Assembly: GCA_964474435.1 (NCBI GenBank)
Contig: CAYYSI010000002.1
Location: forward strand, 92,260-156,259
DNA length: 64,000 nucleotides
Source of the DNA: an uncultured Candidatus Saccharibacteria bacterium
Lineage (GTDB): Bacteria > Patescibacteriota > Minisyncoccia > Phycocordibacterales > UBA9973
Reading direction: 5' to 3'
The position numbers and the translations under genes are program-made. The notes under the pieces were generated by a model. The model ran no database searches. It was not told the DNA's origin and was given only the letters and a program-made list of their open reading frames with translations. Shown in pieces: positions 2,437 to 59,949 of this stretch. Each line of letters begins with the position of its first letter. The first letter of the stretch is position 1.

Positions 2437-2452
2437 GAGTGAAAAGTATACC

Positions 2453-11962: not shown

Positions 11963-11972
11963 CCCCTCTCCT

Positions 11973-12296: not shown

Positions 12297-12525
12297 GGCC
12301 GCAATCGGTCTGATCCATGTCTACCGAGCTATTTTGTCGCCCTCAGTGGGAATCCTACGCATCTCACCTTTCTATCCTCGCCCAAGCTGCATCTTTTATC
12401 CGACATGCTCGGAGTACGGGATTGAATGCTTCAAAAAGTACCCATTCCTGACTGCGGTACGAAAAACAGCGAACCGTGTCGGGCGCTGTCACCCGGGGAA
12501 CGAACCGAAGGTGGACCTACCCTAA
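12268..12525 (+). CDS. yidD: membrane protein insertion efficiency factor YidD
   Basis: Conserved YidD motifs (FYPTCSEYGIE, RCHPG) and position between rnpA and yidC. Confidence 0.7.
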   Translation: MNYSKRLLNKAAIGLIHVYRAILSPSVGILRISPFYPRPSCIFYPTCSEYGIECFKKYPFLTAVRKTANRVGRCHPGNEPKVDLP

Positions 12526-12563
12526 TCCATTGCCATTTCGAGGTCTACGGGTACAATAGACGG

Positions 12564-20169: not shown

Positions 20170-20703
20170 TTATTTTTCGGGGATTTCGCGATACGGATCG
20201 ATCGATTTGATGCCACTTGGTGCAGTTGATGGAGCCGATGTTGTATTGAGTGAAGTATTTTCACCATACGAACGCTTGGTTGGAGCAAGAGTCGATGGAG
20301 CGGTCATAGTTTGGTTGAGACGAGTAAATGAGTTATTTCCAGAAGCCTCTGCTTCAGACAACTCAACCTCTTCGTTTTGTGCATATCCATCTATAACTAA
20401 ATCAAAGATTTTATCAGTCACATTGTTTTTAACCCAATTTATAATTATCTGATTCATCTCCGGTGAAGTACTAATGGATCGGATACGATTAACCAGAGTT
20501 TCTTCTGTTTCTACTTGTGCTATATAACCATATAGAGTTCCTCGAAATAGTGATATCGTCTCTGATGTTAGTCGTTGTTCTTGGCAGAATTCAGTAAACG
20601 CTTTTATAAAAGAATCACTATAAATGTAATCCTTCACTTCCTCAGGAATTTTATTGAAAGACTCTTCTATTTTTTGCAAATTTTCATCCATATTATTTTC
20701 CAC
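20170..20703 (-). CDS. acidic hypothetical protein
   Basis: Track start is GTG at 20703 (alternative ATG at 20691); overlaps the upstream gene stop by 11 nt. Confidence 0.4.
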   Translation of the reverse strand: MENNMDENLQKIEESFNKIPEEVKDYIYSDSFIKAFTEFCQEQRLTSETISLFRGTLYGYIAQVETEETLVNRIRSISTSPEMNQIIINWVKNNVTDKIFDLVIDGYAQNEEVELSEAEASGNNSFTRLNQTMTAPSTLAPTKRSYGENTSLNTTSAPSTAPSGIKSIDPYREIPEK

Positions 20704-25170: not shown

Positions 25171-27483
25171 TTATAGATGACTATAGAAATACACGCTCGA
25201 ATCCTCCGATGTTTTAATAAATGGATCCGGAGTTGCAGTGATGTCTTCGAGATGTGACAACCCTGCAGGGATAGGACCTATCTGGTATGCATTGTCGATA
25301 CATGAGAGCTTCACTGGAGTTCCAGCAGCTGCTTGTGCATCGATATAGTCTGCTTTTGCTCGCGCAACAATACGCTCTACTTCTTGGTCAATGGCTATGA
25401 GTTCGGTGAGCGCATCTTGTGTTGTCTGAATGTTGGTATTGTACTGTTCGTTGTATGCAGCGACACCTTGCGCATAGCCGACGAGGTTTCCTGTTTCTTT
25501 GATCGAGTCCTTGATGTCGCCAGTGATGAGTGCTGCATCAGCCGGAGAGGTCGCCGTTGCAAGGAAGGCATTAGTGATTGCTGTTTCGCTATAGAGATCG
25601 TTGTACTTTGATTTCAAAAGCGTCAAGATATCATTGAAATAATATCCCATGAAGTCTGAACCCGTGATGCCGTTGGTTGCATATCGTCGGTCACTGATTT
25701 TCTTGAGACCGAAGTCAACTTTGTCAAAGAGTGACCATCGCACGAGCGCGTATCCTGCAAGTTCTTCGAAGTCACTGGTGTCATTGCCACCGAGTGTTTG
25801 TCCTGGGTCGAGGATATGGTGAATGTAGTCGATCTGGCCATCAACGGTCTTGGTCACTGGCTGCAAACCTTCGAGGAATGTTTGGGTATTTTCATTGAGG
25901 TTATTGTTCCAGGTTGGATTTGGTCCAGGGATACAATAATCGAGCGCGCCGAGTCGAGGAACGAGCGACTTCATGACGTGCTGCGCATCTTGGCTACGAG
26001 TGAGGAAGTTCTTTTGAGTGAGGATCACTGCGCGAAGCTGTTGGGGGCGACTGATATCGAACTCCTGGTTAAATCCACCTGTTGTTGCGTCATATCCAAG
26101 CGGTGTCTGACAGGCAGTTGCGCTTGCAAGTGTCTGGCCATTGGTACCGAGGACGACATTGCTGCCGATCCCCCCGGGTACGGTCGATGCTGCTCTGCCG
26201 CGTCCTGAGCCAGTGATGCCGTCAGTGAGCAAACGATTCATGAGTTGATCAAAGAATGTACCGAGCACTTGGTTGATCTTGTTAGTATTTTCAAGTTGGC
26301 GCACTGTTGAGTTAGTGATACTTGAAACCTGAGCTGAAATAAGAGAGCCAGGAGTTACTGTTTCGTAGCGCAGACACTTTGGAGCTTTTGTTGGAGATGC
26401 TGCTTGAGTCCCTGTTTGGTATCCACCTGTATATGCAGCACACTGTGCTTGATTTGTTGCAGCACCTCCAACGCTGGTGCAGCATGATGCGTAGTTAGTG
26501 GAAATGATCACACTGCAAGATCCTCCTGCAGTTGGGACGCCGTATGTTGTCGATGCTGTAGCTGTTGAAGTAACAGCTGTCTCGTACTCAGCACATTTTT
26601 TCATACTCAAGAATCCCCCGCCTTGCTGAAGTTCATCTTTTACATTTTGTTGTGCAGTGTCGATGATGCTATTGAGTTCGTCTGTTGCATTAAAATATGC
26701 GCCCACAGGATTGTTTTGAGGATTGAGGAATGCATTCCAGCCACCTTTGGTGAAGTCGCTTTGGAAGTCTTGGTATGCTTTGCCTTCAGGTGTATTCATC
26801 GCCTTGTTGAGGAGGCCATCAGAGTATCCGGTTGCCTGCTGTTTGAGTACAGATTTGAGAGCATTGCCAAATATTGGATTACTATTGCCGACATAGGTAT
26901 TGAGATAGCTATCAAGTTTTTCATTTTTAATAGTCTTGAGGTATGAGTCAATATTGCGTACATAAAAGGGGTTGCCACCAAATCCAGTCTTGACCCAGTT
27001 GAGTGTTTTGTCCGAGAGCTTGGAAAGAGCGGTCTTGGCAACGGCATCTGCTGCACCATTGAGACACTGTTCACGTTTTGTTGTTTTTTCAAGCTCTGCC
27101 TGAGATTTCTCCGTTGCGGTCTGTGTAGGCTTGTCCCCCGTTGGCACTGTTTGTGAGGTATTGGTGTTGCTACTCGTACTAGTTTTCTTATTAGTACTGC
27201 TAAAAAGACTCTTTGCCGCATCTGAAATAGCACCGCCGACATTGAGACAGCTCGCAAGAGCACCTCCGATACCGTTGAATGTGATACCACTATATGTATT
27301 ACCACTAAGACCAGAGCCTGTACCTGGAGTGAAGTTGCTTCCACCGATAGATGCAGCACTTGCACAGTTACAGATGTTGCCGCCTGGTGCGACCGATCCA
27401 TCTGAACACAGCGGATCAGCGTGCGCAACCATTGGAGTTGCCAACAGTGCGAGAAGTATGAAACTAAAGAAGGCAGTGCGCAT
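25171..27483 (-). CDS. large secreted Cys-containing hypothetical protein
   Basis: Signal peptide ending VAHA; 770 aa with no recognisable catalytic motif. Confidence 0.45.
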   Translation of the reverse strand: MRTAFFSFILLALLATPMVAHADPLCSDGSVAPGGNICNCASAASIGGSNFTPGTGSGLSGNTYSGITFNGIGGALASCLNVGGAISDAAKSLFSSTNKKTSTSSNTNTSQTVPTGDKPTQTATEKSQAELEKTTKREQCLNGAADAVAKTALSKLSDKTLNWVKTGFGGNPFYVRNIDSYLKTIKNEKLDSYLNTYVGNSNPIFGNALKSVLKQQATGYSDGLLNKAMNTPEGKAYQDFQSDFTKGGWNAFLNPQNNPVGAYFNATDELNSIIDTAQQNVKDELQQGGGFLSMKKCAEYETAVTSTATASTTYGVPTAGGSCSVIISTNYASCCTSVGGAATNQAQCAAYTGGYQTGTQAASPTKAPKCLRYETVTPGSLISAQVSSITNSTVRQLENTNKINQVLGTFFDQLMNRLLTDGITGSGRGRAASTVPGGIGSNVVLGTNGQTLASATACQTPLGYDATTGGFNQEFDISRPQQLRAVILTQKNFLTRSQDAQHVMKSLVPRLGALDYCIPGPNPTWNNNLNENTQTFLEGLQPVTKTVDGQIDYIHHILDPGQTLGGNDTSDFEELAGYALVRWSLFDKVDFGLKKISDRRYATNGITGSDFMGYYFNDILTLLKSKYNDLYSETAITNAFLATATSPADAALITGDIKDSIKETGNLVGYAQGVAAYNEQYNTNIQTTQDALTELIAIDQEVERIVARAKADYIDAQAAAGTPVKLSCIDNAYQIGPIPAGLSHLEDITATPDPFIKTSEDSSVYFYSHL

Positions 27484-46785: not shown

Positions 46786-46802
46786 AGGGATATTCTATAT
46801 AG

Positions 46803-46874
46803 TGCACCCATCAGGACTCGAACCTGAAACGACGCTTCCGAAGAGCGCTGTGATATCCATTTCACCATGGGTGC
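46803..46874 (-). tRNA. tRNA-Arg (anticodon TCG)
   Basis: Manual fold: acceptor GCACCCA/TGGGTGC, anticodon stem GCGCT/AGCGT with loop CTTCGGA, T-arm CAGG-TTCGAGT-CCTG. Confidence 0.7.
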
Positions 46875-46940
46875 GTATTGCAACTATAGCATTATTAAGG
46901 TTTTTTGCAATTGTAAACCAATGTAGTAGTATATAATACG

Positions 46941-47591
46941 ATGAGAAAGGACAAAGATTTTATATTCACATTGCGCAAAGGAGGGGACTCATATAGGCAA
47001 ATCCAGGCAAAAACAGGGGTTTCACGTGCAACACTTACTAAGTGGTTTGGCAATACTGAGTGGTCAAAGGAGCTAAAAGTGGTCCATACTGACATTGAAA
47101 CCAGAAGCTCAAAGGAGCGAATGATCCGCCTCAATATGGTACGAAAGTTAAAGCTACAGTATGCATACGCACTTATTGAGTCTGAAGCTGTAAAGGAATA
47201 CGAGCTTTACAAGAAAGAACCGCTTTTTTGGGCAGGACTTATGCTCTATGCAGGCGAAGGGGAGAAGACCTCAAAAGGCTTGATTCGTATAAGCAGCAGT
47301 GAGACCTATATCCATAGGATCTTTGGGGATTTTGCCCAAAAGTACCTAGCAGTAGGGGAGAAATCATTGAAATATGGTCTCTTGGTGCACGAAGGGCAGG
47401 ATGAAGGTGTCTGTAAGAGTAAATGGGCACAAGAGCTCTCTCTAGATGATGGTGACTTCTATAAAACCCAGACCCTAAGGGGGCGAGAAACCAGATTGCA
47501 ATATGGTGTCTGTATGAGTATAATCTCGAATACTGGTCTGAAGAGAAAGGTACTAAAGTGGCTTTCTTTGGCACAGAATGAGAAATTTTGA
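46941..47591 (+). CDS. hypothetical protein with N-terminal HTH
   Basis: N-terminal resolvase-type HTH (DSYRQIQAKTGVSRATLTKW) and a weak LAGLIDADG-like segment (WAGLMLYAGEGEK); lies between two tRNA genes. Confidence 0.4.
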   Translation: MRKDKDFIFTLRKGGDSYRQIQAKTGVSRATLTKWFGNTEWSKELKVVHTDIETRSSKERMIRLNMVRKLKLQYAYALIESEAVKEYELYKKEPLFWAGLMLYAGEGEKTSKGLIRISSSETYIHRIFGDFAQKYLAVGEKSLKYGLLVHEGQDEGVCKSKWAQELSLDDGDFYKTQTLRGRETRLQYGVCMSIISNTGLKRKVLKWLSLAQNEKF

Positions 47592-47594
47592 TAT

Positions 47595-47665
47595 GCGGTC
47601 ATAGTTTAGTGGTAGAACGACTCGTTGCCAACGAGTAGGTTGGGTTTCGATTACCCATGATCGCA
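47595..47665 (+). tRNA. tRNA-Gly (anticodon GCC)
   Basis: Manual fold: acceptor GCGGTCA/TGATCGC, D-arm AGTTTAGTGGTAGAACG, anticodon loop TTGCCAA, T-arm GGTTTCGATTACC. Confidence 0.75.
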
Positions 47666-47840
47666 CAGAGTATATAAAGAACAAAAAGACCTTATTATGT
47701 AGGGTCTTTTTGTTTGTGTTGATATGTCTCATAGACAAAACCTGTCGAATATGGGGACAAAACCTTTAATAATCAACGAAACTGTGGATAACTAGGTGTA
47801 TATGTGGGATAACGGACGACTTTTACGCTACACTGTCCCT

Positions 47841-48203
47841 ATGATTCGTGTCTTTACGTCCAAAACCCAGGAATTGGGAGAAAAAGGGGAGCATGAGGCG
47901 GTCGTATACCTAGAAAATGACGGATTTACAGTTATTGAGCGAAATGCGAACGGCAAATACGGCGAAATCGATATTGTGGCCAAAAAGCAGGGGATTGTGC
48001 ACTTCTTTGAGGTAAAGGCAGGGTATGCAGGAGGGTGGATCAATCCGGCAGAAAACCTCACTCAGGCAAAACTTCGGAAATTCCTCATTTCTGCAGAACA
48101 CTATGCGCTGACCCATGGGATCAAAGACTATCGAGTCGAGGGGATCGTCGTGCTCTTTGACCGAAATGGGGGAGTAGGGGTCGAAAGGATAGGACTTTTT
48201 TAA
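47841..48203 (+). CDS. yraN: YraN/UPF0102-family endonuclease
   Basis: Conserved GEIDIVA...FFEVK motif; ATG at 47841 chosen (the track start is GTG at 47796). Confidence 0.65.
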   Translation: MIRVFTSKTQELGEKGEHEAVVYLENDGFTVIERNANGKYGEIDIVAKKQGIVHFFEVKAGYAGGWINPAENLTQAKLRKFLISAEHYALTHGIKDYRVEGIVVLFDRNGGVGVERIGLF

Positions 48204-48221
48204 GGTCTTTTTTGTGCGGGA

Positions 48222-48292
48222 TAGGGGAATCGGACTCCTGCTCTCAGTTTGGAAAACTGATGTTCTACCATTAAACTAATCCCGCAATATTT
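48222..48292 (-). tRNA. tRNA-Gly (anticodon TCC)
   Basis: Manual fold: acceptor GCGGGAT/ATCCCGC, anticodon stem TCAGT/ACTGA with loop TTTCCAA. Confidence 0.7.
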
Positions 48293-48340
48293 CTATTTTA
48301 TATTCTTTGGTCTCCTTCGCCAAGGCTTCGGCGACCGTTG

Positions 48341-48411
48341 TCGGGGTGCAGGGAATCGAACCCTGCCCTCTTGTTCCCAAAACAAGTATACTACCGATAT
48401 ACTACACCCCG
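48341..48411 (-). tRNA. tRNA-Pro (anticodon TGG)
   Basis: Manual fold: acceptor CGGGGTG/CACCCCG, anticodon stem CTTGT/ACAAG with loop TTTGGGA, T-arm CAGGG-TTCGATT-CCCTG. Confidence 0.65.
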
Positions 48412-48535
48412 TAGCACAAGCCATGGTAGCAGAAAACTACTAAAGATGCTATCCCTTACACTTCATTTTTTCTACAAGGAAATTTCTAAAATTTCGTAGG
48501 AGTAAAGCACTTTTTATTGCTATACTTGTATTGTA

Positions 48536-50809
48536 ATGACGCACTCACGCGGTCACCTTTTTAGTACTCATAGACGCACACTCGCTGCGCTCTTGTTCGG
48601 CCTCTCGTTTTCGATCATTGTTGCGTACGCAACACCGCCGGGTAGTGCATATACGCCAGGTGAGACGCTTGACCCAACATGTGCACCAGGAGATACATTT
48701 TGTACCGTTGCGATTGCGGGAGGGTTAACATTTTCTACTGGACTTACCAATACGGCAAATACGATTACGAACAATCTCTCGACTGGTGTATCTGGGGGGC
48801 AGAGTGTCGTGGGCGGTACGGCCGCATCAAACAACCTCACGCTTTCATCAACGACTAATGCAACCAAAGGGAAAATTATTTTTGGGACAAGTGTGTATGA
48901 TGAGGCAAACAATAGGCTTGGTATAGGGACAACATCACCCGATCAGCGATTTGTTGTGCAAGGACAGACAGTGGGAGGAACACCAACATATCTCAGATTT
49001 GATTCAGGTATTCTTTCATTGGAAGGAGATTTGTCGGCACAAAATGGGGTACCACTGATCGATTTCAAAGATACTGCAACCAATCAAGTCTTTTCACGTG
49101 TGGGATATATTCTCAATACTGGTATTTCGATTAGTAACTCATGGATTGGTTTAAATAAATCAGCGGTCTTTATTGAACATACCGCTGATGAAAATTCATT
49201 TGTGATTTCCAGAGGGACGGCGGCATATGGAGTACCAACCCGTATTGGTATCGGTACGGCCACACCCTCAAGTAGGTTTGATGTGACAACGGATGCTTTG
49301 AGTGAAACACAAACTGCAGTCTCCGGTATTGCACTCGTAAACCACTCTCCGGCAGTAAATGGAGTACAACAGATTTCGCCCGCAATCCGATGGTCAGGTC
49401 ATGGATGGAAAACAGCTAGTACTGCGGCAAGTCAGGCCGTTGATTTCAGAGCGTATGTTACTCCTGTGCAAGGAACGACAAATCCTACGGGGTATCTCGG
49501 GTTTGGATCATCGATCAACGGGGGAGCGTACACCGATAATCAGCTTGTATTAACGAGTCAGGGATACGTAGGAATTGGGACGACGACACCGTCTAATGTG
49601 CTCGAAGTAACCGGAGGAGCGAGTATATTTAATGGAGACATCCGTATACGATCAGGTAATACCTTTGTTGTATTAAATGCAGATAATTCTCTCAATGGTT
49701 CGATGTCGCTCATACATGAACCAAATAATCCTGCTATATCTATAGTCGCATCGCAGTATAATGGCAGTACTATACAGGGATATAACGGAGAAGGTTCATA
49801 CTATTATGCGACTGTTTCGGGCAATCGTATTGTTTCCATAGATAGGAATGTACTGTCGGGCGGAACGACGGGTGGAAACGGATTTACTATCGGGGACTAT
49901 GCTGAGTATGCACCAACGACAGGGACCAATACGTACAACACAATAAACCTCAATCCTATTATTAACGCTACAGGTGGCACGAACACTGTTCGGGGGATCT
50001 ACTATAATCCAAATCTTACAGCAGTGGTCGGCACAACCAATATTGCCTTTGAAAATACAACAGGAAACGTGCTGTTGGGTACGACGAGTGGGCGAGTGGG
50101 TATCGCAAATACGAATCCGGGATATTTGCTCCATGTTGGTTCGTCCGCGGTCACGACCGGTACAACAGTTGCACGTTTTGAAAATCAGGGCGGTACGTGT
50201 GATGTTGTTCCGTCAACTATCGGAGGTATAACCTGTACATCCGATGAGCGGCTCAAGAAAAATATCACGACACTTGATGATTCTATATTGGACAAAATAC
50301 TTTCGCTTCGATTGGTAACATACAACCTGAGAGCCGAAGAAAATACTGATCCTTTGCATACAGGTGTCATTGCGCAAGAACTCGTGAACGTGTTTCCTGA
50401 GCTTGTTGCCACTGATAGCTCCGGCTGGGAGTCAGTCTCGTATACTGGACTGATCCCGTACACGATCAAGGCAATTCAAGAAATGAATCTGCGTGTTACC
50501 GAGCTCAATGACATGCAAAAAGCAAATCCACTCCGCGACAACCTCACTGCATGGTTTGCAAATGCTGCAAACCATATCACGCGCATCTTTACGGGTGAAA
50601 TCTGCCTTACGGATACTGACGGCACATCGGAATGTCTAAACAAAGCAGAGCTCGGACAATTGAAACAACTCCTCAATACACAGACACGCACACCTGATCC
50701 TGTTGTACCATCAACCCCTGATCCACTACCATCGCAAGATCCGAGTATTCCTGAATTAGTGCCAGAGAGTACACCCGCTGAGATTCCCACAGATACGTCA
50801 CAATCATAA
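48536..50809 (+). CDS. secreted tail-fibre-like protein with C-terminal Peptidase_S74 intramolecular chaperone (autoproteolytic) domain
   Basis: Signal peptide/TM LAALLFGLSFSIIVAYA. The C-terminus CTSDERLKKNITTLDD...GVIAQEL...P matches the S74 IMC consensus S-D-x-R-x-K-x-N-I, followed by a coiled-coil tail. The central region is Gly/Thr/Asn-rich and beta-helix-like. Confidence 0.65.
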   Translation: MTHSRGHLFSTHRRTLAALLFGLSFSIIVAYATPPGSAYTPGETLDPTCAPGDTFCTVAIAGGLTFSTGLTNTANTITNNLSTGVSGGQSVVGGTAASNNLTLSSTTNATKGKIIFGTSVYDEANNRLGIGTTSPDQRFVVQGQTVGGTPTYLRFDSGILSLEGDLSAQNGVPLIDFKDTATNQVFSRVGYILNTGISISNSWIGLNKSAVFIEHTADENSFVISRGTAAYGVPTRIGIGTATPSSRFDVTTDALSETQTAVSGIALVNHSPAVNGVQQISPAIRWSGHGWKTASTAASQAVDFRAYVTPVQGTTNPTGYLGFGSSINGGAYTDNQLVLTSQGYVGIGTTTPSNVLEVTGGASIFNGDIRIRSGNTFVVLNADNSLNGSMSLIHEPNNPAISIVASQYNGSTIQGYNGEGSYYYATVSGNRIVSIDRNVLSGGTTGGNGFTIGDYAEYAPTTGTNTYNTINLNPIINATGGTNTVRGIYYNPNLTAVVGTTNIAFENTTGNVLLGTTSGRVGIANTNPGYLLHVGSSAVTTGTTVARFENQGGTCDVVPSTIGGITCTSDERLKKNITTLDDSILDKILSLRLVTYNLRAEENTDPLHTGVIAQELVNVFPELVATDSSGWESVSYTGLIPYTIKAIQEMNLRVTELNDMQKANPLRDNLTAWFANAANHITRIFTGEICLTDTDGTSECLNKAELGQLKQLLNTQTRTPDPVVPSTPDPLPSQDPSIPELVPESTPAEIPTDTSQS

Positions 50810-50833
50810 TTTCTTGCTATACTTACTACTGTA

Positions 50834-52474
50834 ATGACGCATTCACGCGCTCAACTTTTCAGTACTCATAGACGCACACTTGCTGCACTCATGTTTGGGC
50901 TCGCATTTTCTGCGGTTGTTGCGTACGCGACACCACCAGGGAGTGCATATACGCCCGCCGAAACACTCGATCCCATCTGTGTCCCAGGAAGTGCATTTTG
51001 TACAGTAGATATTAGTGCGGGGTCTCTCATTGGTTCAACATCTACTAATGGTACAGAGACGTGGCTTGGGACGAGTGTGGCTGGGCTTGGGGCGGCATCA
51101 ACTGATCACACTGTTTTTATTGGGATTGATGCAGGGATAAGTGCAAATGATAGTGAGTATTCTAATTTCATGGGATATCAGGCAGGCGCAGGGTCGACAA
51201 CGACACACTCGTCCACATTTATTGGTACAAATGCTGGATACCAAGTGAGTAATGCTTCAAATGCGGTATTTATCGGTTCCGAAAGTGGATCAACGGTGAC
51301 AAATGCAGGGGGTTCAAACTTCATCGGCTATCAGGCGGGCCTCAATGCAATAAATGCTACCACATCCAACCTCATCGGCTATCAGGCAGGACTGAATAGT
51401 TTTTCAGTGGCTGTTGCCAACGTCATCGGTAATGGTGCGGGGTCTGGTGCTACTGCTGCACCCTTCGTTAATTTCATTGGAAACAATGCAGGGTTTAATT
51501 CGTCGGATACGAGTAGTTCAACCTTTATAGGGTATAACACAGGTGGAAACGCAACCCATGCACAGCACTCAGTCTTTATTGGAACACAGACAGGAGCTAA
51601 TTCTACAGGAGCAACGAATGGAATATTTCTAGGAAGAGAGGCTGGCCTAAATGATACCGTTGATAATACTACCGACCAAGATGACTACTCAATACTTATT
51701 GGTCTTCGTGCAGGAACAGGAGGATTTGAAAACAGTATTGCAATCGGCGCATACGCAACAAACACTGCGCTAAACCAATTTATGATTGGTTCTGCAACGC
51801 GTCCGATAAATGAAATGGTCATCACCGGAACTGGGGGGCAGTCATGTACGATTCGCCCGGATACTGCAGGTATCAACTGTTCATCTGATCAAACACTCAA
51901 AACAAATATTACTGATTTAGAAAATGTACTCGACACACTCAGTGATGTGCGCACGGTCATGTACAATTGGAAAAATACTCCAAACACCAATGCGCAAATC
52001 GGATTTCTTGCACAAGATCTCAAGGAGTATTTCCCAACACTTGTGTCTCGTGCATCAAATGGGTATCTCCAGGTCAACTATGCAGGCATGACACCGATCC
52101 TCACAAAGGCGATCCAAGAACTCAATCTAAAAGTAGAAGGTGCGTTTGATATTCAGAAAAACAATACCTTTGCCGGAAATATGCGTGCATGGTTTGCAAA
52201 CACTTCAAATGGCATCGCAAAGATGTTTGCGGGTGAAGTAGAGACAAAGAACTTGTGTGTCTCTGACGATACAGGCGAGCGAACATGTATTACGAAGTCA
52301 GACCTCGACGCACTTCTTGAAAATGCACACCTCACTCCATCGTCTCCAGAACCAGTACCGACACCTGAAATACCTGTAGTCCAAGATGAGCCGGTTGACC
52401 CAGTACCAACTGAGGATGCGACTGAACCTATGGTTGATAGTACAATTGATACACCACCAACACACAATGAATAA
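50834..52474 (+). CDS. secreted tail-fibre-like paralogue with Hep_Hag-like FIGYQAG repeats and C-terminal Peptidase_S74 IMC domain
   Basis: The first ~60 aa and the 5' region are near-identical to the upstream paralogue. There are about 10 degenerate 14-16-aa repeats (NFIGYQAGLN...). The C-terminus reads CSSDQTLKTNITDLEN...GFLAQDL. Confidence 0.65.
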   Translation: MTHSRAQLFSTHRRTLAALMFGLAFSAVVAYATPPGSAYTPAETLDPICVPGSAFCTVDISAGSLIGSTSTNGTETWLGTSVAGLGAASTDHTVFIGIDAGISANDSEYSNFMGYQAGAGSTTTHSSTFIGTNAGYQVSNASNAVFIGSESGSTVTNAGGSNFIGYQAGLNAINATTSNLIGYQAGLNSFSVAVANVIGNGAGSGATAAPFVNFIGNNAGFNSSDTSSSTFIGYNTGGNATHAQHSVFIGTQTGANSTGATNGIFLGREAGLNDTVDNTTDQDDYSILIGLRAGTGGFENSIAIGAYATNTALNQFMIGSATRPINEMVITGTGGQSCTIRPDTAGINCSSDQTLKTNITDLENVLDTLSDVRTVMYNWKNTPNTNAQIGFLAQDLKEYFPTLVSRASNGYLQVNYAGMTPILTKAIQELNLKVEGAFDIQKNNTFAGNMRAWFANTSNGIAKMFAGEVETKNLCVSDDTGERTCITKSDLDALLENAHLTPSSPEPVPTPEIPVVQDEPVDPVPTEDATEPMVDSTIDTPPTHNE

Positions 52475-54608
52475 ACTATTTAGAAACATACTAGTACTCG
52501 CACTGTGCACGATAGGATTCGTGAGTGTTGCACACGCGGCAATGGGGACGATCGACCCAGGCAATGATGGCTCATACAAGGCGCTTATACAAAATACTGA
52601 CCTGGGGGCCGCAACCGCAATTAACTTTGGGAAGTTCACGACACAGTCTGCAAAAAATATCACCGTCTCTGACACAGAGCTGCGTGGGTTTGCTTGGGGC
52701 GAAGGGGTAGGGTGGATCGTCACCAACTGTGCTGATACGACGAGTGGCTGCAGTGTCACCAACAGCAATTTCAAAATCGCCAATGATGGCAGTGGCAACC
52801 TCTCGGGCTACGCCTGGGGTGAAAACACGGGCTGGATCAATTTTGGGCCATTTACCAACCCTCTGATTTCAACAGTCAAAATTTCTGGAGGACAATTTGG
52901 AGGTACTCTTGGAAGCGCGGGCTACGCATGGTCACAAAACTTTGGCTTCATCAAGTTTGATTGCAGTAGTCCTACAAGCTGTGTAAAAACTGACTGGGCA
53001 CCAGGTGGAGCATTTCAGTGTAACGATACAGTAGATAATGATGGAGATGGATTGATCGACTATCCTGCTGATCCTGGATGTAGTAATGCGACAGATAATG
53101 ATGAATCAAATGGTGGAACAACTGGGGGACCGGGAACTCCCGCATGTCGGGACGGGCGTGATAACGACGGCGACAACCTTGTCGACTATCCATCTGACCC
53201 AGGCTGCGATAACGCAGACGATACAAATGAATTTAATGCGCCGATAGATTTCTGTACCGCAAATCCATCTGATCCGTCGTGTTCATTTTGTGCATTGAAC
53301 CCAACCAACCCAGCTTGTCAGCAACCACCATTCTGTACGACGAACCCGGGTGATCCATCATGTTCATTCTGTAATCAAAATCCAGGAGATCCGTCATGTC
53401 AGATACCATTCTGTACAACCAATCCAACAGCGCCAATATGTCAGCAGCCATTCTGCACTCTGTATCCGAATGATCCATCATGCCAAGCACAACCATTTTG
53501 TACAACAAACCCAAATGATCCTTCGTGTGCATTTTGTGTTCTGAATCCTACTGATCCATCCTGCAAGACAACACCATCATATTGTCAGGTACACCCCGAA
53601 GAATGTTACCCTCCAAAAATACCAACAAAAATCGAAGGTGCAACCAAATCTTTTGTTACTGGCACAATCGGCAAAATACTCAAACTCACAGGGCTTGTTG
53701 CAGTCGGCGTTGGTGCACTCGCACTTTCATTCGTCGGAACACAGTTCTCACTCTACAGCCTTCTCCTTCTCTTGATGCGACTCTGGTCACTCTTGCTCAT
53801 CGCCCTCGGTATCAAGAAAAAGAGTAATCCATGGGGGACTGTGTATGACTCTGTCACCAAACAGCCAATCGATCCGGCGTACGTCGTGCTCATGGATATG
53901 CAGGGCAATGAAGTTGCAACCTCGATCACTGACATCGAAGGACGATACGGATTTGCAGTACCTCCTGGCACCTATACGATCATAGCGAACAAGACTAACT
54001 ACGAATTCCCATCCAAGAAACTTGCAGGCAAGACATCTGATGAACTCTACGATGACCTCTACTTTGGTGGACCAATCGTGATCACAGAACAAGATGGTCT
54101 GATCACAAAAAATATCCCACTCGATCAGCAGAACTTTGACTGGAACGAATATGCAAAAAATGAACAGCATCGACTCCGTCACTACAAGCGTCAAGATCTC
54201 TTTATTGCACGCCTTTCAAATATATTCTTCATTCTCGGCTTCATCGTCACCGCGATCTCGGTCCTCGTCGTTGCGTCCCTCTTTAATATCGTGCTCATGG
54301 GACTCTATATTGTCACTGCACTTGGGCGACTCTTTAAGGTTCGCATTCAACCAAAGGGAAGTGTCGCAGACACTGCAACTGATATGCCATTGCCGTTTAG
54401 TGTGGTGCGCGTGGTCTCGACTGCAACTAACAAAGAGATCATGCACAAGGTCGCAGGACCCACCGGCAAGTACTACGCGCTCGTAGCAAATGGTGACTAT
54501 CGCGTCGTCGTCGATCGCAAGAACGCCGATCAAAGCTATACGCCGGTCTCTATCCCAGATCCTGTCGCAGTGAAAAAAGGTTATATGAAAAAAGACTTCA
54601 AAGTATAA
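52467..54608 (+). CDS. multi-pass membrane protein with thrombospondin-type-3-like Ca-binding repeats, about ten CxxNPxDPSC cysteine repeats and CarboxypepD_reg-like domains
   Basis: ATG at 52467 overlaps the upstream stop (ATGAATAA). Signal peptide; DNDGDGLIDYPADPGC repeated twice; the repeat array FCTTNPGDPSCSFC...; a TM bundle; the motif GTVYDSVTKQPIDPAYVVLMD...GRYGF..PPGTYTI. Confidence 0.55.
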   Translation: MNKLFRNILVLALCTIGFVSVAHAAMGTIDPGNDGSYKALIQNTDLGAATAINFGKFTTQSAKNITVSDTELRGFAWGEGVGWIVTNCADTTSGCSVTNSNFKIANDGSGNLSGYAWGENTGWINFGPFTNPLISTVKISGGQFGGTLGSAGYAWSQNFGFIKFDCSSPTSCVKTDWAPGGAFQCNDTVDNDGDGLIDYPADPGCSNATDNDESNGGTTGGPGTPACRDGRDNDGDNLVDYPSDPGCDNADDTNEFNAPIDFCTANPSDPSCSFCALNPTNPACQQPPFCTTNPGDPSCSFCNQNPGDPSCQIPFCTTNPTAPICQQPFCTLYPNDPSCQAQPFCTTNPNDPSCAFCVLNPTDPSCKTTPSYCQVHPEECYPPKIPTKIEGATKSFVTGTIGKILKLTGLVAVGVGALALSFVGTQFSLYSLLLLLMRLWSLLLIALGIKKKSNPWGTVYDSVTKQPIDPAYVVLMDMQGNEVATSITDIEGRYGFAVPPGTYTIIANKTNYEFPSKKLAGKTSDELYDDLYFGGPIVITEQDGLITKNIPLDQQNFDWNEYAKNEQHRLRHYKRQDLFIARLSNIFFILGFIVTAISVLVVASLFNIVLMGLYIVTALGRLFKVRIQPKGSVADTATDMPLPFSVVRVVSTATNKEIMHKVAGPTGKYYALVANGDYRVVVDRKNADQSYTPVSIPDPVAVKKGYMKKDFKV
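53230..53580 (+). repeat. in-frame tandem coding repeats (~33-36 nt units) encoding the CxxNPxDPSC array
   Basis: Repeated ...tgtac(a/g)acaaacccaaatgatcc(a/t)tc(a/g)tg... units visible at the nucleotide level. Confidence 0.6.
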
Positions 54609-54610
54609 AA

Positions 54611-54645
54611 GAAAAAATCTCCATCAATTGATGGAGATTTTTTCT
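54611..54645. terminator. bidirectional rho-independent terminator
   Basis: aaaaa-ATCTCCATC-aatt-GATGGAGAT-tttttc. Confidence 0.7.
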
Positions 54646-54653
54646 TTAAGTAC

Positions 54654-55019
54654 TTATTTGGTGATAGTTTGGATCTTTTCGATGACGTCGCTGAGTGTGA
54701 AGTTTGATTTCACCATGTATTCTGCGGCACCTGCATCGAGGACGCGCTTCATTTCGAGATCGTCAGAAAGGTTTGAAAAGACAATAACAGGGACTGCTTT
54801 TATTTTCTCATCAGCCTTGAATTTCTGAAGGAGTTCGTAGCCGTTGATGTCTGGGAGCATGAGGTCAAGGAGTATGACGTCAGGAGTGCCGAGCGCGAGT
54901 GCGTTGTCGACTTCGGCTTGTGTGGTTGCAGCAATCACCGCAAAGCCTTCGTGGGTGAACTTTGAACTCTCGAGGTTCTTTAAAAATGAGTCGTCTTCGA
55001 TAATCAGGATTTTTTTCAT
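54654..55019 (-). CDS. stand-alone response regulator receiver domain (CheY-like)
   Basis: Acidic pocket DD...D (ILLDLMLPD) and the conserved K; 121 aa with no output domain. Confidence 0.8.
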   Translation of the reverse strand: MKKILIIEDDSFLKNLESSKFTHEGFAVIAATTQAEVDNALALGTPDVILLDLMLPDINGYELLQKFKADEKIKAVPVIVFSNLSDDLEMKRVLDAGAAEYMVKSNFTLSDVIEKIQTITK

Positions 55020-55065
55020 ATACAGAGAGTATACCCCAGATTGGAAAATCCGCTATTCTGCTCAA

Positions 55066-55764
55066 TTATCCCAAAGGCAGCGCGAGAGTGAATATGGTGC
55101 CTTCGAGTGGGGTACTGGTAAACGTGAGCGTGCCACCCTGGCGCTCGACGATATGTTTGGTTGCATAGAGGCCGAGTCCGACGCCGACGTATTTTTCTCG
55201 GGTATTGGATGCCCGGAAAAACTTCTCAAAGATCCGTGCATGTTCCTCGTGCGGGATAACGACACCTTTGTCTCCCACAGTGAGCACGGCCTTGCCGCCC
55301 ATGCCAGCGAGTGTCAGCGTGATGTCTGTATTTGCAGCGCCATATTTGATCGCATTTTCCAGCAGGTTGTGGATCGCAATACGCAGCTTTTCTTTGTCAC
55401 CAATGACGACGATGGGGCTTGGGGGTGCGGTATAGCGTATGTGCATGCCTTTTGCAGCAGCTTCACTCGTGAAATCTTTGATAGAGACATCGATGAGTGT
55501 ATTGAGCGGGATCGGATCTGTCGCATAAGGGACACTGCCGCCTTGGGTACGGATGATCGTCATCGTGTCATTGATGAGTGTGATCATGCGCTCGTTGGAG
55601 TCGGTGGCCTGAGCGAGCATTGCCACTTGGGTTTTGTTCAGTGAGCCAAAGTCGCCATCAATGAGCATCTTGAACAGCCACTTCATCGCAGTGAGAGATG
55701 TGCGCAGCTCGTGTGCAGATACGAGGAAGAAATCAATCTTTTCTTGAGAGTCATTTTTTTCCAT
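55066..55764 (-). CDS. soluble sensor histidine kinase (HisKA + HATPase_c, no TM or sensor domain)
   Basis: H-box SAHELRTSLTAM, an N-box LLENAIKY, and G-boxes GVGLGL. Confidence 0.8.
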   Translation of the reverse strand: MEKNDSQEKIDFFLVSAHELRTSLTAMKWLFKMLIDGDFGSLNKTQVAMLAQATDSNERMITLINDTMTIIRTQGGSVPYATDPIPLNTLIDVSIKDFTSEAAAKGMHIRYTAPPSPIVVIGDKEKLRIAIHNLLENAIKYGAANTDITLTLAGMGGKAVLTVGDKGVVIPHEEHARIFEKFFRASNTREKYVGVGLGLYATKHIVERQGGTLTFTSTPLEGTIFTLALPLG

Positions 55765-55794
55765 TACAACGATTGTACCATTTATGGAGTATGA

Positions 55795-55825
55795 AAATAA
55801 AAAACCCTTCCGGAATGGAAGGGTT
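55795..55825 (-). terminator. rho-independent terminator (minus strand)
   Basis: On the minus strand: CCCTTCC-attcc-GGAAGGG-ttttttatttt. Confidence 0.55.
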
Positions 55826-55851
55826 ATGTTTAGGTGTTTTTTGTAAGAATG

Positions 55852-56151
55852 TTAGGCAGCTAATGTTGCTAACACTTTGTCGTGTCCCGGTATTGCTTCT
55901 ACACCCACCAATATTTCTTTGGTATGGATGTGAATGAATTTCGGGGAGTTGCCGTTCATTTTTCTTTTAACCGCAGTTATGATAGCGATAATGTCAGATG
56001 CTGCCACGTTTTCTTCAAAAATGATTGCAGCATGTTTTTTCTTTTTAGCGGCTTCAGCAATCTCAAAAGGTTTGGCTCCTTTGTGAGAAAAAGAAAGTGC
56101 CGGCTTCGGATCATTTTTAAGATAAATTTCCTTTAAAGAATTTTCAGTCAT
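55852..56151 (-). CDS. small hypothetical protein
   Basis: ATG at 56151 (MTENSLKEIY); 99 aa; no confident family assignment. Confidence 0.3.
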   Translation of the reverse strand: MTENSLKEIYLKNDPKPALSFSHKGAKPFEIAEAAKKKKHAAIIFEENVAASDIIAIITAVKRKMNGNSPKFIHIHTKEILVGVEAIPGHDKVLATLAA

Positions 56152-56261
56152 GGTAGTTCTTTCGCGGTCACAGTTGGTGACAAAGAGCAGTTTTTTACAT
56201 ATAGTAAATTGTTGTTTTGTTTCCAAACATAATACTCTATTTCCAAAATAAGTCAACAAAA

Positions 56262-56290
56262 ACGACAAAATCCCCGCGAGGGGATTTTGG
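56262..56290 (-). terminator. rho-independent terminator
   Basis: aaaATCCCC-gcga-GGGGATttt hairpin downstream of the 56301 gene. Confidence 0.55.
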
Positions 56291-56300
56291 GAGGGGAGAT

Positions 56301-57224
56301 TTATTTAGCTTTTACAAAATCAGTATAGTTTGCAGTGGTACTTTCCGCTTTCTTCTTTTTTACCAAGAATCCATATTCAGAATATTTTATACCTGTTTTA
56401 AGGATCGCATCTTTTTCATAGCGGTTTATTTGTCCTGATGGATTTACTGTCGCAAAGTTTTCGAGGCCACCCGCACTAACCTTGTCGTTAACGTTGTTAT
56501 CCATTGTGTCATCAGATTCAGAATGAGTTGTATCAATAACCATACCGTATCCAATTTTATTAATAAGCTCCTGACCATTTTTAGCAACCGCTGTACGCAA
56601 ATCTTGAGTATTCGCAAGTTCAAACCCGAGTTCTTTTGCTGCCTTCTTTACATGTTCAATTTTTTCAGCATCGTTGTGACTATCATCTCCATCAAATCCA
56701 ACAAAAGCATATTCATAATTTGCGTCATTCATGGGAACATTCAACGACCCTTTGAATGTGATACCTGCTACTTCTTGGTTCGCTTCAGTGAAAACAATTT
56801 TTTCTTGGCCAATAGATTGAGTTTTTTCTTGAGTAGTATCACTCGGAAGTTTTTTAAGGTCCTCTGCGTTTGCGGCTGTAACGGCCGTAACCCCAAAACC
56901 AAGCAGTGTAAGGAATTTTCTAAAACCACCAACTTTTGATGTTTGTGGTATGTAATTTTTTGATGATGTCCAAGGCTCTGCTGGCGCATTTCCGCGCTGG
57001 TATGCAATAGAGCCCACCTTGTCTTTCATAGGGGTTTCCTTCGGTGTTTTGTAGGCATTATCAAGATCTCCCATGGTCTCTGCAACTTGTGCTTCGCGAT
57101 CTTCAGAGCTTTCCATTTCAACAATGACTCGCTCGCCAGGTCGTGCATGGATTACCACATCTTCTTTATTGATATTTTCTGCAACGTTTTCGTTTACTTC
57201 AAGATTTTCTTTTGATGATTCCAT
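56301..57224 (-). CDS. hypothetical protein with acidic N-terminus and one TM segment
   Basis: ATG at 57224 (MESSKENLEV); TM FRKFLTLLGFGVTAVTAANA. Confidence 0.4.
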   Translation of the reverse strand: MESSKENLEVNENVAENINKEDVVIHARPGERVIVEMESSEDREAQVAETMGDLDNAYKTPKETPMKDKVGSIAYQRGNAPAEPWTSSKNYIPQTSKVGGFRKFLTLLGFGVTAVTAANAEDLKKLPSDTTQEKTQSIGQEKIVFTEANQEVAGITFKGSLNVPMNDANYEYAFVGFDGDDSHNDAEKIEHVKKAAKELGFELANTQDLRTAVAKNGQELINKIGYGMVIDTTHSESDDTMDNNVNDKVSAGGLENFATVNPSGQINRYEKDAILKTGIKYSEYGFLVKKKKAESTTANYTDFVKAK

Positions 57225-57243
57225 GCCATCACTATACCACACG

Positions 57244-59949
57244 CTACTGATACCTCGCCATGATTTCAGCTTCCACTTCCTCTCTCGGGCGGCCGTATTT
57301 GAGGTAGGAGAGCTCCTTGAGTTTCTCGGCAACAACAGGGTTACCCTTGGGTGGGAATGGGGTCTTGGAGTTAAATGGCTTGGCAGGGACGCCGTTTACG
57401 AGCATTTTGATATAGCAGTTGAGGTTTTCTTGTTTGATGATGTCGGCCGGAGTGAATGTTGGGGCAAGTTGTTGTTCAAAGATATTGGCATTTTCAGGAG
57501 AGACACGGTGGACGACCATGGTACCGACGTTTCCAAATATCGCATTCTTGATGCCTTCCTCAAGCTGCTCGATGTACTGGTGCGCAACCGTAAGCGAGAG
57601 GCGATATTTGCGGGCCTCGGAAAGGATCGTCGAGATCGAGTCAGTCGTGACGTTTTGGAACTCGTCGATGTAGAGATAGAAGTCGTTCACTGGACCCTTG
57701 CCGATGATGTCGACACGAGAGAGTGCTGCCATGGTGATCTTGCCGACCAAAAGGAGACCGATGAGGTTGGAGTTGATGTCACCGAGACGGCCTTTGGAAA
57801 GGTTCACAAGCAAGATCTTTTTGTTATCCATGATGTCGCGGAAGTTGAGCACGGATTCTTGTTGAGCGACGACGGGGCGCATGATGTCGTTAGAAATAAA
57901 CACGTCAAATTTGTTGGTGATATAGGGGACGAAGTTCGCAAGTGCACTCTCACCAGTTGTCTTTTCAGCATTTTGCCAAAAGGCTTTGATGATCGGATTT
58001 TTGCAGCGGGCGAGTTTCATGTCGCGGAACGTCTTGTCGGTGAGGACACGACCGATTTCGAGAAGTGTAGAACCAGATGCTGGGTCCTCCATCACAAGGC
58101 CTGCAGAGTTGCGGAAGTATTGTTCAAACATTGGGCCACCCGCAGTCTTCATATCAAAGAGTTTGTTGAAAATAGAGAGGAGCTCGTTGATGACAAATAT
58201 TTTTTGTTCAGGGAAGTTTGCATCGTACTCAAGCATGTTGAGACCCATCGGACGCGCCGTGTGAGCCGGATCAAAATAGATGACGTCGTCGATGCGCTCT
58301 GGGGGGATGTTGGCAAGGATGTCCTCGATGTCGTTGCCGTGCGGATCGATGAAGCACACTCCGTCGCCGTTTTTGATATCCTGAATGATCATGTTTTTCA
58401 AAAACACGGTTTTACCAGTACCAGTCTGTCCGATCACATAGCAGTGGCGCACGCGATCTTCTTTTGCAAAATGAATCTCAGTCGTCTGTCCGCGATACGT
58501 GTTGGTACCGATCGTGATGCCGTTCGTGTTTGGCATTGTCGGTGCAGGCGCAGATGCAGCACTACTTTCCTTGAGCTCGGGCGCAGCCGTAAATCCAACA
58601 GGGAAGTGAAAGAGTGTTGCGAGCTCGTCGATGTTGAGCGGTATTTGTTCGCTCTGATTGCGTGTACGGAATGTAAAGTCGTGCACAAATGCAGGGATTG
58701 CAGATGCACGCGTGTCATACCAAATGAGTGAGTTTGAGTTGGGCAATGTGAACTGCGCAAACGATGCTTTGATCGTATTGAGAATACTTGTTGCGCGTTC
58801 GACCGTGGTACCTGTTGCGATAATGCGAATACCTGCAGTCATGGTCTGACTTTTTGCCTTTGCGGTTGCAAACTCGATGCCGCGCGTGTCGACTGGTTTT
58901 GGTTTGTCGTCCTCTGGTTTGTCTTTTTCAAAAAAGGCCATGAGTCCTTTGCCGAGCTCGCGACCGATAGAGGCCGTTGCATCTTTGTACAAGTCTTTGA
59001 CCGTTGTGCCACCCTTTTGTGCAGAGTCGATGATCGATGTGTAGAGCGTGTTGGTGTTCGTCGTGTCATTTGAAATGATGAGCTGGATTGCAGCGCCTTC
59101 ACCATTTGCTTCAAGTTGTGAGAGTGACCCGATCAAAGCTGAGAGAGGATCGTGCTCAAATGCGCTGTCAGTGTTCAATGGAAAAATTGCAGGCTCTTTG
59201 AGCGATGCAACACTTGCGGCAATACCAGAGCCTTGAGCCGTGAATATGTTGTAGTCATCGACGACTTCATCAATGATGGCGGTGGGGTAGTATGCGTGCA
59301 CGAGCTTTTCAAATGTAGATTCGTTGACACTTGGGATCGATGCATAGAGTCCAATGTCGCGACCGTTGTTTTGCACGGCGAGTTCGAGGACATAATAGTC
59401 GACACCGTTGCTGATGGTTGACCACATGCCCATGTAGAACTGCTTCATCGCCTGAATGAAATTTTTGAAATCACTGCCTTCAGTATTTGCAGCTGCAGGA
59501 AGGGTCACCGCAAAGAGGGTGTGGCGAAGTTCTTGTTGGAGGGCACTTCGTTCTTTGAGTCCCGGGATTGCGCCGATCGTATGGAGGTACTGCACGAGGA
59601 ATCGGTGGAAGTCGTCCTCGAGGTGTGCGTCGTGCATGCCCGCAACGATGTCGAGCGCATTTTTGATACCCTTGGAGAGCATGATCGCAAAGAGCTCCTC
59701 TATCTTTTGGTCATGGGTTTCAGGTTTGAGACGCAGCACGATACGTTCTGTTTCGTGTGTCGGCAGCATGCTTGATTCATGAAGGAACTCTTGAGCTTCA
59801 GTTTGCGCATACTGCTCGATCGTGTGCTTTGCGGCAGCTTCGAGATTTGCATGTGGCTTACTCTGCAGCAGATATTCTTTTTGCGCTTCAGTACCAAGCC
59901 ATGCGATTTCTTGGGCAGGTGTTGTCAGCGTTTCTTTGGGAGCGAACAT
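57244..59949 (-). CDS. VirD4/TraG-family type IV coupling-protein-like ATPase with ~480-aa N-terminal extension and no TM anchor
   Basis: Walker A VIGQTGTGKTVFL, a D-rich Walker B region YLYIDEFQN, and a TraG-D_C-like signature KYRLSLTVAHQYIEQL. Confidence 0.55.
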   Translation of the reverse strand: MFAPKETLTTPAQEIAWLGTEAQKEYLLQSKPHANLEAAAKHTIEQYAQTEAQEFLHESSMLPTHETERIVLRLKPETHDQKIEELFAIMLSKGIKNALDIVAGMHDAHLEDDFHRFLVQYLHTIGAIPGLKERSALQQELRHTLFAVTLPAAANTEGSDFKNFIQAMKQFYMGMWSTISNGVDYYVLELAVQNNGRDIGLYASIPSVNESTFEKLVHAYYPTAIIDEVVDDYNIFTAQGSGIAASVASLKEPAIFPLNTDSAFEHDPLSALIGSLSQLEANGEGAAIQLIISNDTTNTNTLYTSIIDSAQKGGTTVKDLYKDATASIGRELGKGLMAFFEKDKPEDDKPKPVDTRGIEFATAKAKSQTMTAGIRIIATGTTVERATSILNTIKASFAQFTLPNSNSLIWYDTRASAIPAFVHDFTFRTRNQSEQIPLNIDELATLFHFPVGFTAAPELKESSAASAPAPTMPNTNGITIGTNTYRGQTTEIHFAKEDRVRHCYVIGQTGTGKTVFLKNMIIQDIKNGDGVCFIDPHGNDIEDILANIPPERIDDVIYFDPAHTARPMGLNMLEYDANFPEQKIFVINELLSIFNKLFDMKTAGGPMFEQYFRNSAGLVMEDPASGSTLLEIGRVLTDKTFRDMKLARCKNPIIKAFWQNAEKTTGESALANFVPYITNKFDVFISNDIMRPVVAQQESVLNFRDIMDNKKILLVNLSKGRLGDINSNLIGLLLVGKITMAALSRVDIIGKGPVNDFYLYIDEFQNVTTDSISTILSEARKYRLSLTVAHQYIEQLEEGIKNAIFGNVGTMVVHRVSPENANIFEQQLAPTFTPADIIKQENLNCYIKMLVNGVPAKPFNSKTPFPPKGNPVVAEKLKELSYLKYGRPREEVEAEIMARYQ

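Follow-up and report, generated by a model that had tools for sequence, protein, structure and literature searches.

We analyzed a 64-kb stretch of DNA (hereafter the window) from an uncultured Candidatus Saccharibacteria bacterium (contig CAYYSI010000002.1, assembly GCA_964474435.1) and focused on two adjacent genes, A and B, whose products carry the Peptidase_S74 intramolecular chaperone domain best known from phage tail fibers. On balance, A and B are probably diverged paralogs in a large, multi-copy family of Sec-exported homotrimeric surface fibers that has so far been seen only in Patescibacteria. By analogy, they most likely serve to attach to or recognize another surface, such as that of a host cell, an assignment that follows from their likeness to the mosaic adhesive trimer (MAT) fibers, with which the predator Bdellovibrio recognizes its prey, and to phage receptor-binding proteins. 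Coordinates are window positions unless they are given for another named locus, and the analysis of this genome covers the window alone.

Gene A (48536..50809, + strand) encodes a fiber precursor of 757 amino acids and gene B (50834..52474, + strand) one of 546, both identified by open reading frame (ORF) calls and Pfam matches; the spacer between them is 24 nt. Their 5' ends form an ungapped direct repeat of 187 nt with 79% identity, recovered by blastn as a block of 197 nt at 79.7% identity that runs from -23 to +173 (about codon 58), and the pattern TTGCTATACTT..TGTAATGACGCAYTCACGCG taken from this block had zero matches in shuffled sequence. The first 63 residues of the two proteins are 78% identical, their middles are unalignable, and the C-terminal ~214 residues are again related (38% identity, E = 1e-39). 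An earlier note, made from the DNA letters of this stretch, had described tandem genes with a common 5' start, divergent middles and reconverging C-termini, and both blastn and protein alignment confirm that description. Each precursor opens with a predicted signal peptide (residues 1-32) and a short N-terminal module (N-module, residues 33-58) containing C49 and C56. The mosaic body of A, with recurring modules at residues 64-145 and 236-350, leads to the Cys pair C555/C567, the S74 chaperone from S569, an extension at residues ~660-715 containing C690/C700 and an acidic Pro/Thr-rich tail. The body of B is a beta-roll of 17-residue repeats (residues ~90-330, a YadA-like head in the predicted model), followed by the Cys pair C338/C349, the S74 chaperone (residues ~335-440), an extension at residues 441-500 containing C475/C485 and an acidic Pro-rich tail.

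Both proteins exceed the Pfam gathering cutoff of 22 bits for PF13884 (Peptidase_S74), a profile check that had been proposed beforehand: residues 569-624 of A match with 64 bits (E = 1.5e-17) and residues 351-404 of B with 55.4 bits (E = 7e-15). The Ser/Lys dyad, on whose presence the S74 assignment had been staked, is found as S569/K574 in A and S351/K356 in B, and the S, D and K of the SDxxxK motif are invariant in an alignment of 60 homologs. The predicted autocleavage nucleophiles are thus encoded at 50240..50242 (+ strand; Ser569 of A, with Lys574 as the base) and at 51884..51886 (+ strand; Ser351 of B, with Lys356 as the base). The dyad spacing is the same as that of S911/K916 in endoNF, and the autocleavage mechanism that we assume, with a Ser nucleophile and a Lys base, is the one described there (PMC3828593). 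A phmmer search of PDB sequences with the C-terminal part of A matched phage tail-fiber chaperones, with SDERLK aligned to the catalytic motif, and Foldseek grouped the C-terminal part of the B model with the MyRF ICA domain and the endosialidase chaperone. In this structural comparison, the models show the chaperone fold of S74 proteins. The domain does not lie at the extreme C-terminus of either protein; ~100 further residues follow it.

The shared 5' end belongs to a far larger set of genes than this pair. A phmmer search with the first 65 residues matched 514 cluster representatives (50% identity clusters, E <= 1e-3), so the 5' cassette is not the private duplication of A and B that it had first been taken for. 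The N-module stands at or near the N-terminus in 150 of 150 proteins among the matches listed, which are ~500-2000 residues long, and the chaperone was also found in 78 of the 95 new representatives of at least 450 residues, most of the others looking truncated. In most homologs the N-terminus is a signal-peptide-like segment with AxA at its end, after which comes PPGSxYxPGETLDPxCxPGxxxCxV; conservation between A, B and the rest of the family ends near residue 60. The homologs number in the hundreds, the named sources of N-module clusters are Patescibacteria only (Pacebacteria, Nomurabacteria, Paceibacterota and similar groups), and the nearest relatives come from Paceibacteria/Nomurabacteria-type metagenome-assembled genomes. 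NCBIfam gave zero matches for A or B. Tandem fiber copies (two or three) occur at 10 of 79 loci and several assemblies supply three to five fiber loci each, which together with the exchange of body modules between proteins makes this a multi-copy mosaic repertoire. A and B themselves are ordinary members of it. The N-module falls into subtypes, ...AYATPPGSxY, ...FAIGxPY and ...GYGxFVFAAxPxGGY.

Export is predicted from the N-terminus. A and B each have a single hydrophobic segment, which is N-terminal and followed by AxA; by inspection it looks like a signal peptide, with a basic n-region, a hydrophobic core of 15-18 residues (Kyte-Doolittle 2.3-2.5) and a putative cleavage site between AYA and T. 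The claim that these proteins are exported is therefore upheld as probable. Each protein also contains exactly six cysteines, arranged as three pairs; in the 60-sequence alignment, every one of these positions is either invariant or conserved to at least 90%. The combination of conserved disulfide pairs and a signal peptide speaks for extracytoplasmic folding. At one other locus, L168, thioredoxin/AhpC-like and DsbD-like genes (10796-12690, - strand) lie beside a fiber gene and its membrane-protein neighbor, gene C (described below), which is consistent with a requirement to handle disulfides outside the cytoplasm. Beyond the extension lies an acidic tail (median 63 residues) in which Pro, Thr, Ser and Glu predominate; hydrophobic runs were absent from the 238 family tails examined, and so, for practical purposes, was the LPXTG motif.

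To set the family against viral S74 proteins, we used profile hidden Markov models of the chaperone core and the post-chaperone region, built from our alignment A2, on 80 viral loci from IMG/VR and the best 79 loci from Patescibacteria genomes, chosen by similarity to gene B; all of the best 79 genome loci were from Patescibacteria. Chaperone-bearing ORFs numbered 97 in the viral set and 91 in the Patescibacteria set, and, with the proviso that locus counts are not phylogenetically independent and are inflated by shared ancestry, the post-chaperone extension was present in 89 of the 91 Patescibacteria ORFs and in none of the 97 viral ones. The median number of residues beyond the chaperone is 127 in the 91 Patescibacteria ORFs versus 8 in 96 viral ORFs, and a Cys pair just before the catalytic Ser occurs in 78 of 91 versus 0 of 96. 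The N-module (a regular expression match with a preceding ATG start) was found in 49 Patescibacteria ORFs and in no viral ORF. At the level of sequence, the cellular family is sharply distinct from viral S74 proteins.

This distinction bears on the idea that A and B are true tail-fiber genes, left by a prophage, a tailocin or a contractile injection system. Some annotation points that way: PHROG tail-fiber profiles match the C-terminal ~100-170 residues of A and B, two of them (phrog_1980 and phrog_8215) reach over the repeat body of B (residues ~103-435), and the usual NCBI name of relatives is 'tail fiber domain-containing protein'. We nevertheless regard a phage-derived remnant as extremely unlikely. 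The Cys pairs and signal peptides of A and B are absent from the 96 viral homologs examined, as are the extension and N-module from the 97 viral ORFs with an intramolecular chaperone, and similarity in cultured phages is confined to the chaperone region. No neighboring ORF has a phage-family match; ten unannotated window ORFs had no match in PHROG, and the annotated neighbors are housekeeping genes, namely those for tRNAs, YraN, the CCA-adding enzyme, UvrD, RNase Y and a two-component system, together with genes for ComM, XerC/D and a VirD4-like ATPase. Adjacent phage structural genes, named in the earlier note as what would favor a prophage, are thus not what surrounds A and B, and the absence of phage genes nearby together with the signal-peptide-like N-terminus supports its reading of the fibers as cell-encoded and probably exported. 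The chromosomal slot is moreover conserved across genomes. Read on contigs of 324-633 kb, relatives also have chromosomal contexts: one lies between an AddA-like helicase gene and gyrB on a 633-kb contig, and at L004 (5132-12472) S74 fibers are encoded within the ribosomal-protein cluster, between L2 and S19. S74 fiber genes likewise stand just after rpsL-rpsG at L141/L142 (~2000-7400).

A single-sequence scan of viral contigs found the gene A module of residues 64-145 once, in a putative viral ORF on a 51-kb IMG/VR contig (L169, 2350-3978), at 67% identity over 64 residues. The ORF has Hep_Hag-like repeats and lacks both the N-module and the S74 domain. The contig could belong to a Patescibacteria phage that shares fiber modules, or it could be misclassified.

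The bodies of the two proteins differ in predicted structure. The model of gene B (predicted local distance difference test, pLDDT, 77) has a strand every 17 residues from ~90 to 330, where pLDDT exceeds 90, and after these repeats come the chaperone, a helix, a Cys hairpin, a second helix and a disordered tail. The body is predicted from this model to be a YadA-like adhesin head; gene B falls below the Pfam Hep_Hag model, and its repeat is 17 residues long. Gene A is a mosaic, its modules at residues 64-145 and 236-350 recurring at 60-80% identity and at other positions in many family proteins, including proteins without S74. The beta-helix that had been proposed for A from its composition is not evident in its model. 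We also considered that the fibers might be secreted and released, with nothing to keep them on the cell once signal peptide and chaperone are gone, and might then either bind in soluble form or modify host surface polymers enzymatically, as tailspikes do. This is improbable in our view: neither Pfam nor NCBIfam identified a catalytic domain beyond S74 in A or B, the best structural matches of the body are adhesin heads rather than enzymes, and a strict N-module across hundreds of otherwise variable proteins is most simply a common docking end, as has been argued for MAT fibers.

From the computed domains, dyad, architecture, genomic context and viral differences we infer export, trimerization, cleavage, anchoring and adhesive function, which could be combined as follows. 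Each gene would be transcribed from its own extended -10 promoter into a leaderless or near-leaderless mRNA, and the precursor would pass through Sec and lose its signal peptide after AYA. The three conserved disulfide loops would then form extracellularly, and the C-terminal S74 chaperone would trimerize and template folding of the body from the C-terminus toward the N-terminus. The dyad would cleave on the N-terminal side of Ser569 in A and Ser351 in B, releasing the chaperone, extension and acidic tail as a piece of 189 residues from A and 196 residues from B. In the mature fiber of ~536 (A) or 318 (B) residues, the N-terminal Cys-loop module would be the 'presentation' end held at the cell surface, and binding would fall to the variable body, which in B would be a YadA-like head and in A a set of shuffled modules.

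Several observations weigh against surface-held trimeric fibers. Cleavage would leave no LPXTG motif, lipobox or C-terminal transmembrane helix to serve as an anchor, and the N-module that would have to hold the fiber is only ~27 residues long, with residues 33-75 modeled as low-confidence coil in both proteins. The gene A model is poor (pLDDT 64, with residues 360-500 below 50). The post-chaperone extension, finally, is given no explained role by this reading; it might keep the trimeric chaperone stable once outside, or hold back folding while export is still under way.

A possible anchor is encoded immediately downstream. Gene C (52467..54608, + strand), whose ATG overlaps the stop of gene B by 8 nt, encodes a 713-residue membrane protein in which a signal peptide is followed in order by Trp-rich repeats, acidic disulfide repeats, Cys/Pro repeats, transmembrane helices and CarboxypepD_reg domains; the repeats comprise three of the Trp-rich GYAWGENTGWINF type, two acidic double-disulfide units and seven FCTTNPxDPSC units. 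It has more than 1000 homologs, the named ones from Patescibacteria only. A gene C homolog lies directly downstream of the last fiber gene (same strand, gap 2-155 nt) at 19 of the 79 loci and anywhere within the fiber locus at 26 of the 79. Among the loci sampled, only the ...AYATPPGSxY and ...FAIGxPY subtypes of the N-module are found directly upstream of gene C. The reverse test, starting from four gene C homologs (L165-L168), found a fiber gene abutting upstream at L165, a convergent adjacent fiber gene in a different context at L168, and no adjacent fiber gene at L166 or L167. With two of the four homologs lacking a neighboring fiber gene, the case for gene C as an obligatory partner is weakened; adjacency in differing arrangements hints at a functional link that is not obligatory. 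Our working hypothesis is that gene C is a candidate partner or anchor of the fibers.

The comparison of gene C loci also shows that the space between tRNA-Pro/Gly and gene C is a variable slot for fiber genes. Its upstream edge in the window is the pair tRNA-Gly(tcc) and tRNA-Pro(tgg) (48214..48411, - strand, ARAGORN), and it holds no fiber gene in L167, one in L087 and in L165, and two in L133 and in the window. L167 has the same backbone as the window, namely the CCA enzyme, a helix-turn-helix protein, YraN, tRNAs, gene C, a response regulator, a kinase and a VirD4-like ATPase. The tRNA pair, part of a four-tRNA cluster in the window (46802-48411; Arg-tcg, Gly-gcc, Gly-tcc and Pro-tgg), is on the - strand in the window and L133 and on the + strand in L167 and L087, a local inversion beside the slot. 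This variability speaks to a further reading, in which the fibers are structural parts of the envelope (an S-layer-like coat or spacer fibers) with no specific ligand. Such parts could well be exported, disulfide-stabilized, trimeric and widespread in a lineage, as the fibers putatively are, but several strongly diverged paralogs with shuffled middles and zero to two copies per slot fit diversifying binders, and a relative with the same backbone (L167) does without any fiber gene at the slot. We judge an envelope part distinctly unlikely.

Beyond gene C lies a perfect 20+20 nt palindrome (54608..54647) at the end of the gene, terminator-like on the - strand only in our scan; from its symmetry, it may end the A-B-C unit as well as the convergent response-regulator gene. 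The block that follows (54654-59949, - strand) is kept with gene C in L165-L167 and contains the response regulator, a histidine kinase, one or two unknown ORFs and a VirD4/TrwB-like coupling ATPase of 901 residues; it may belong to a patescibacterial type IV secretion system.

A more ambitious proposal, which we offer as speculation and think unlikely as a whole, would join the fibers and gene C into one surface organelle with swappable bodies. Under this joint proposal, the N-module of every fiber would dock on the extracellular Cys-rich stalk of gene C, a single anchor would display interchangeable receptor-binding fibers, the 5' block and the 3' chaperone block would act as homology arms for body swaps within and between genomes, and such swaps would re-target the episymbiont to new hosts. 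If true, cells would have an equivalent of the way in which phages evolve their host range.

Whether the 5' block is exchanged between paralogs can be examined from its divergence. In the window pair, third-position identity is 56%, and identical residues use identical codons at only 29 of 48 positions in the N-terminal block and 32 of 69 in the C-terminal region. A is as near to B (78.3%) as to the orthologs at L133 (76.7%). Such synonymous divergence leaves no room for recent conversion between A and B, and we reject it for this pair. Tandem paralogs at other loci are different. At L153 the 5' block is 98.3% identical over 240 nt, and otherwise only the 3' chaperone region (68%) and a few short segments align; the corresponding values are 98.8% over 332 nt with a 3' region at 78% for L090, 90.4% over 208 nt with a 3' region at 71% for L133, and 80.6% over 139 nt with partial alignments at 70-73% for L164. 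The first gene at L133 is the ortholog of A (70% identity) and the second that of B (51%); over codons 1-30, however, this pair shares 97.8% identity, and each of its members is only ~77% identical to its window ortholog. Among informative sites in the first 180 nt, 15 group the sequences by genome and 4 by orthology, a pattern that conversion in the L133 lineage alone could give. Judged from these alignments, the 5' block does undergo occasional homogenization in this family.

Homogenized starts in front of differing bodies would also be expected of programmed antigenic or phase variation, with the 5' cassette as a recombination and expression site and bodies supplied from silent copies. The near-identity of 5' blocks in the L153, L090 and L133 paralogs, the rest of whose sequence is far more diverged, and the closer likeness of the L133 genes to each other than to their window orthologs could both be read this way. 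We find it very unlikely all the same. A and B are both intact ORFs, each with a promoter-like box; one has to go ~9 kb to reach the nearest recombinase gene, of XerC/D type; and the window pair is diverged at synonymous sites. The data fit occasional gene conversion rather than a switching device. A search of the 64-kb window for silent cassettes, as the earlier note had suggested for the genome, found no further copy of the 5' block with up to three mismatches. No inverted repeats flank the A and B promoters, and an invertible promoter is rejected on that ground; no invertible elements were found in the window. The idea of recombinational shuffling thus survives in part: relatives carry 5' blocks of 90-99% identity and mosaic modules, and the pair that prompted it has had no recent conversion.

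The starts of A and B are preceded by promoter-like sequence at very short distance. The extended -10-like box TGCTATACT occurs at 48518..48526 (+ strand), ending 9 nt before the gene A ATG, and again at 50815..50823 (+ strand) in the A-B spacer, ending 10 nt before the gene B ATG; a scan found no Shine-Dalgarno (SD)-like motif in the 20 nt upstream of either ATG. The box before gene A is, to judge from its position, a probable promoter that would give a leaderless or near-leaderless mRNA. A scan found no terminator-like site between A and B. The SD-less ATG with a -10 hexamer had been presented as a feature of these two genes; it is indeed present at both, but we reject it as special to them, the same arrangement occurring throughout the window. 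A TAYRHT box lies 4-13 nt before the start in 17 of 53 long window ORFs, compared with 3.2% of all ATG triplets, and SD-like motifs are at background (5 of 53 versus 8.4%). The upstream region of the gene at 40824 carries the same TTGCTATACT, and in other genomes 37 of 49 family genes have the box 5-13 nt before their ATG (for example, upstream of P0011). Because boxes precede these window ORFs as well as family genes elsewhere, the leaderless-type start is not peculiar to the A/B locus, and box position suggests leaderless mRNAs for much of the window's genes. Window starts with a TAYRHT box 6-11 nt before the ATG and no SD motif include 128, 5738 (-), 14530 (-), 17218 (-), 25162 (-), 40824, 59949 (-) and 61397. 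Two long ORFs on the - strand without a Pfam or PHROG match (20693-24187, 1164 residues, and 25171-27483, 770 residues) also have a -10-like box before each.

The closest described system is the MAT fibers of Bdellovibrio bacteriovorus (Caulton et al., 2024, PMC10769870), which begin with a signal peptide and an invariant N-terminal domain, believed to attach to the surface of the predator, and continue as a mosaic trimeric fiber with variable tips. In that work, S74 with SDxxxK closes 13 of the 21 MAT members, experiments demonstrated both autocleavage and a location on the surface, and Patescibacteria are not mentioned (PMC10769870). MAT fibers are a published precedent for cell-encoded, exported S74 fibers, and the novelty first implied for A and B was accordingly overstated (PMC10769870). 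The two systems differ at the N-terminus, where A and B have a ~27-residue Cys-loop module and MAT fibers a beta-rich domain of ~130 residues. The A/B family also has three disulfide pairs, a ~100-residue extension and acidic tail after the chaperone, and a frequent gene C neighbor, and it occurs in Patescibacteria, which we take to be monoderm-like, whereas MAT fibers belong to a diderm predator. In its overall logic the family matches MAT fibers, but it lacks the ~130-residue N-domain, one of the traits that define them, and brings features of its own, namely Cys pairs, an extension and the proximity of gene C.

Other systems resemble A and B in part. Phage intramolecular chaperone proteins (K1F endosialidase, phi29 gp12 and T5 pb1) have the same Pfam domain, dyad and predicted fold, and follow the same plan, in which a conserved end attaches, a variable part binds and the chaperone is cut away; unlike A and B, they end within ~8 residues of the chaperone, lack Cys pairs, N-module and signal peptide, are encoded among virion genes and assemble in the cytoplasm. 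The head of gene B was compared with trimeric autotransporter adhesins that have Hep_Hag heads (YadA, UspA1, BpaC and CbpF). Those adhesins use a beta-barrel anchor, whereas A and B would trimerize by a cleavable S74 chaperone; Pfam finds no C-terminal beta-barrel translocator or anchor in either protein, both of which end in S74, the extension and a disordered acidic tail, and Patescibacteria are not known to have an outer membrane that could take one. The MYRF/MrfA ICA domain of eukaryotic membrane-bound transcription factors, a non-viral use of S74, gave the best structural match (7dc3) to both the A and B models, but its role is to set a transcription factor free, a transmembrane helix comes after it, and it faces the cytoplasm. 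Mycoplasma vsp/vlp genes form a multigene family of surface proteins with a conserved 5' end (promoter and signal peptide). The A/B family resembles them in its tandem paralogs, homogenized 5' block and differing bodies, and differs in that no site-specific invertase, promoterless copy or repeat-tract switch was seen in the window.

We found no literature on S74 or tail-fiber proteins in the Candidate Phyla Radiation/Patescibacteria; papers on host attachment by Saccharibacteria implicate type IV pili, together with a small number of adhesins whose domains are of other kinds. A family that is large, multi-copy, mosaic and apparently confined to the ultrasmall Patescibacteria, and that resembles both phage receptor-binding proteins and MAT fibers, is therefore a concrete candidate for the determinants of host specificity, and its variable fiber bodies can be compared against host range. 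The cleavable S74 chaperone of phages may have been adapted in these cells to extracellular folding through the disulfide pairs and the C-terminal extension.

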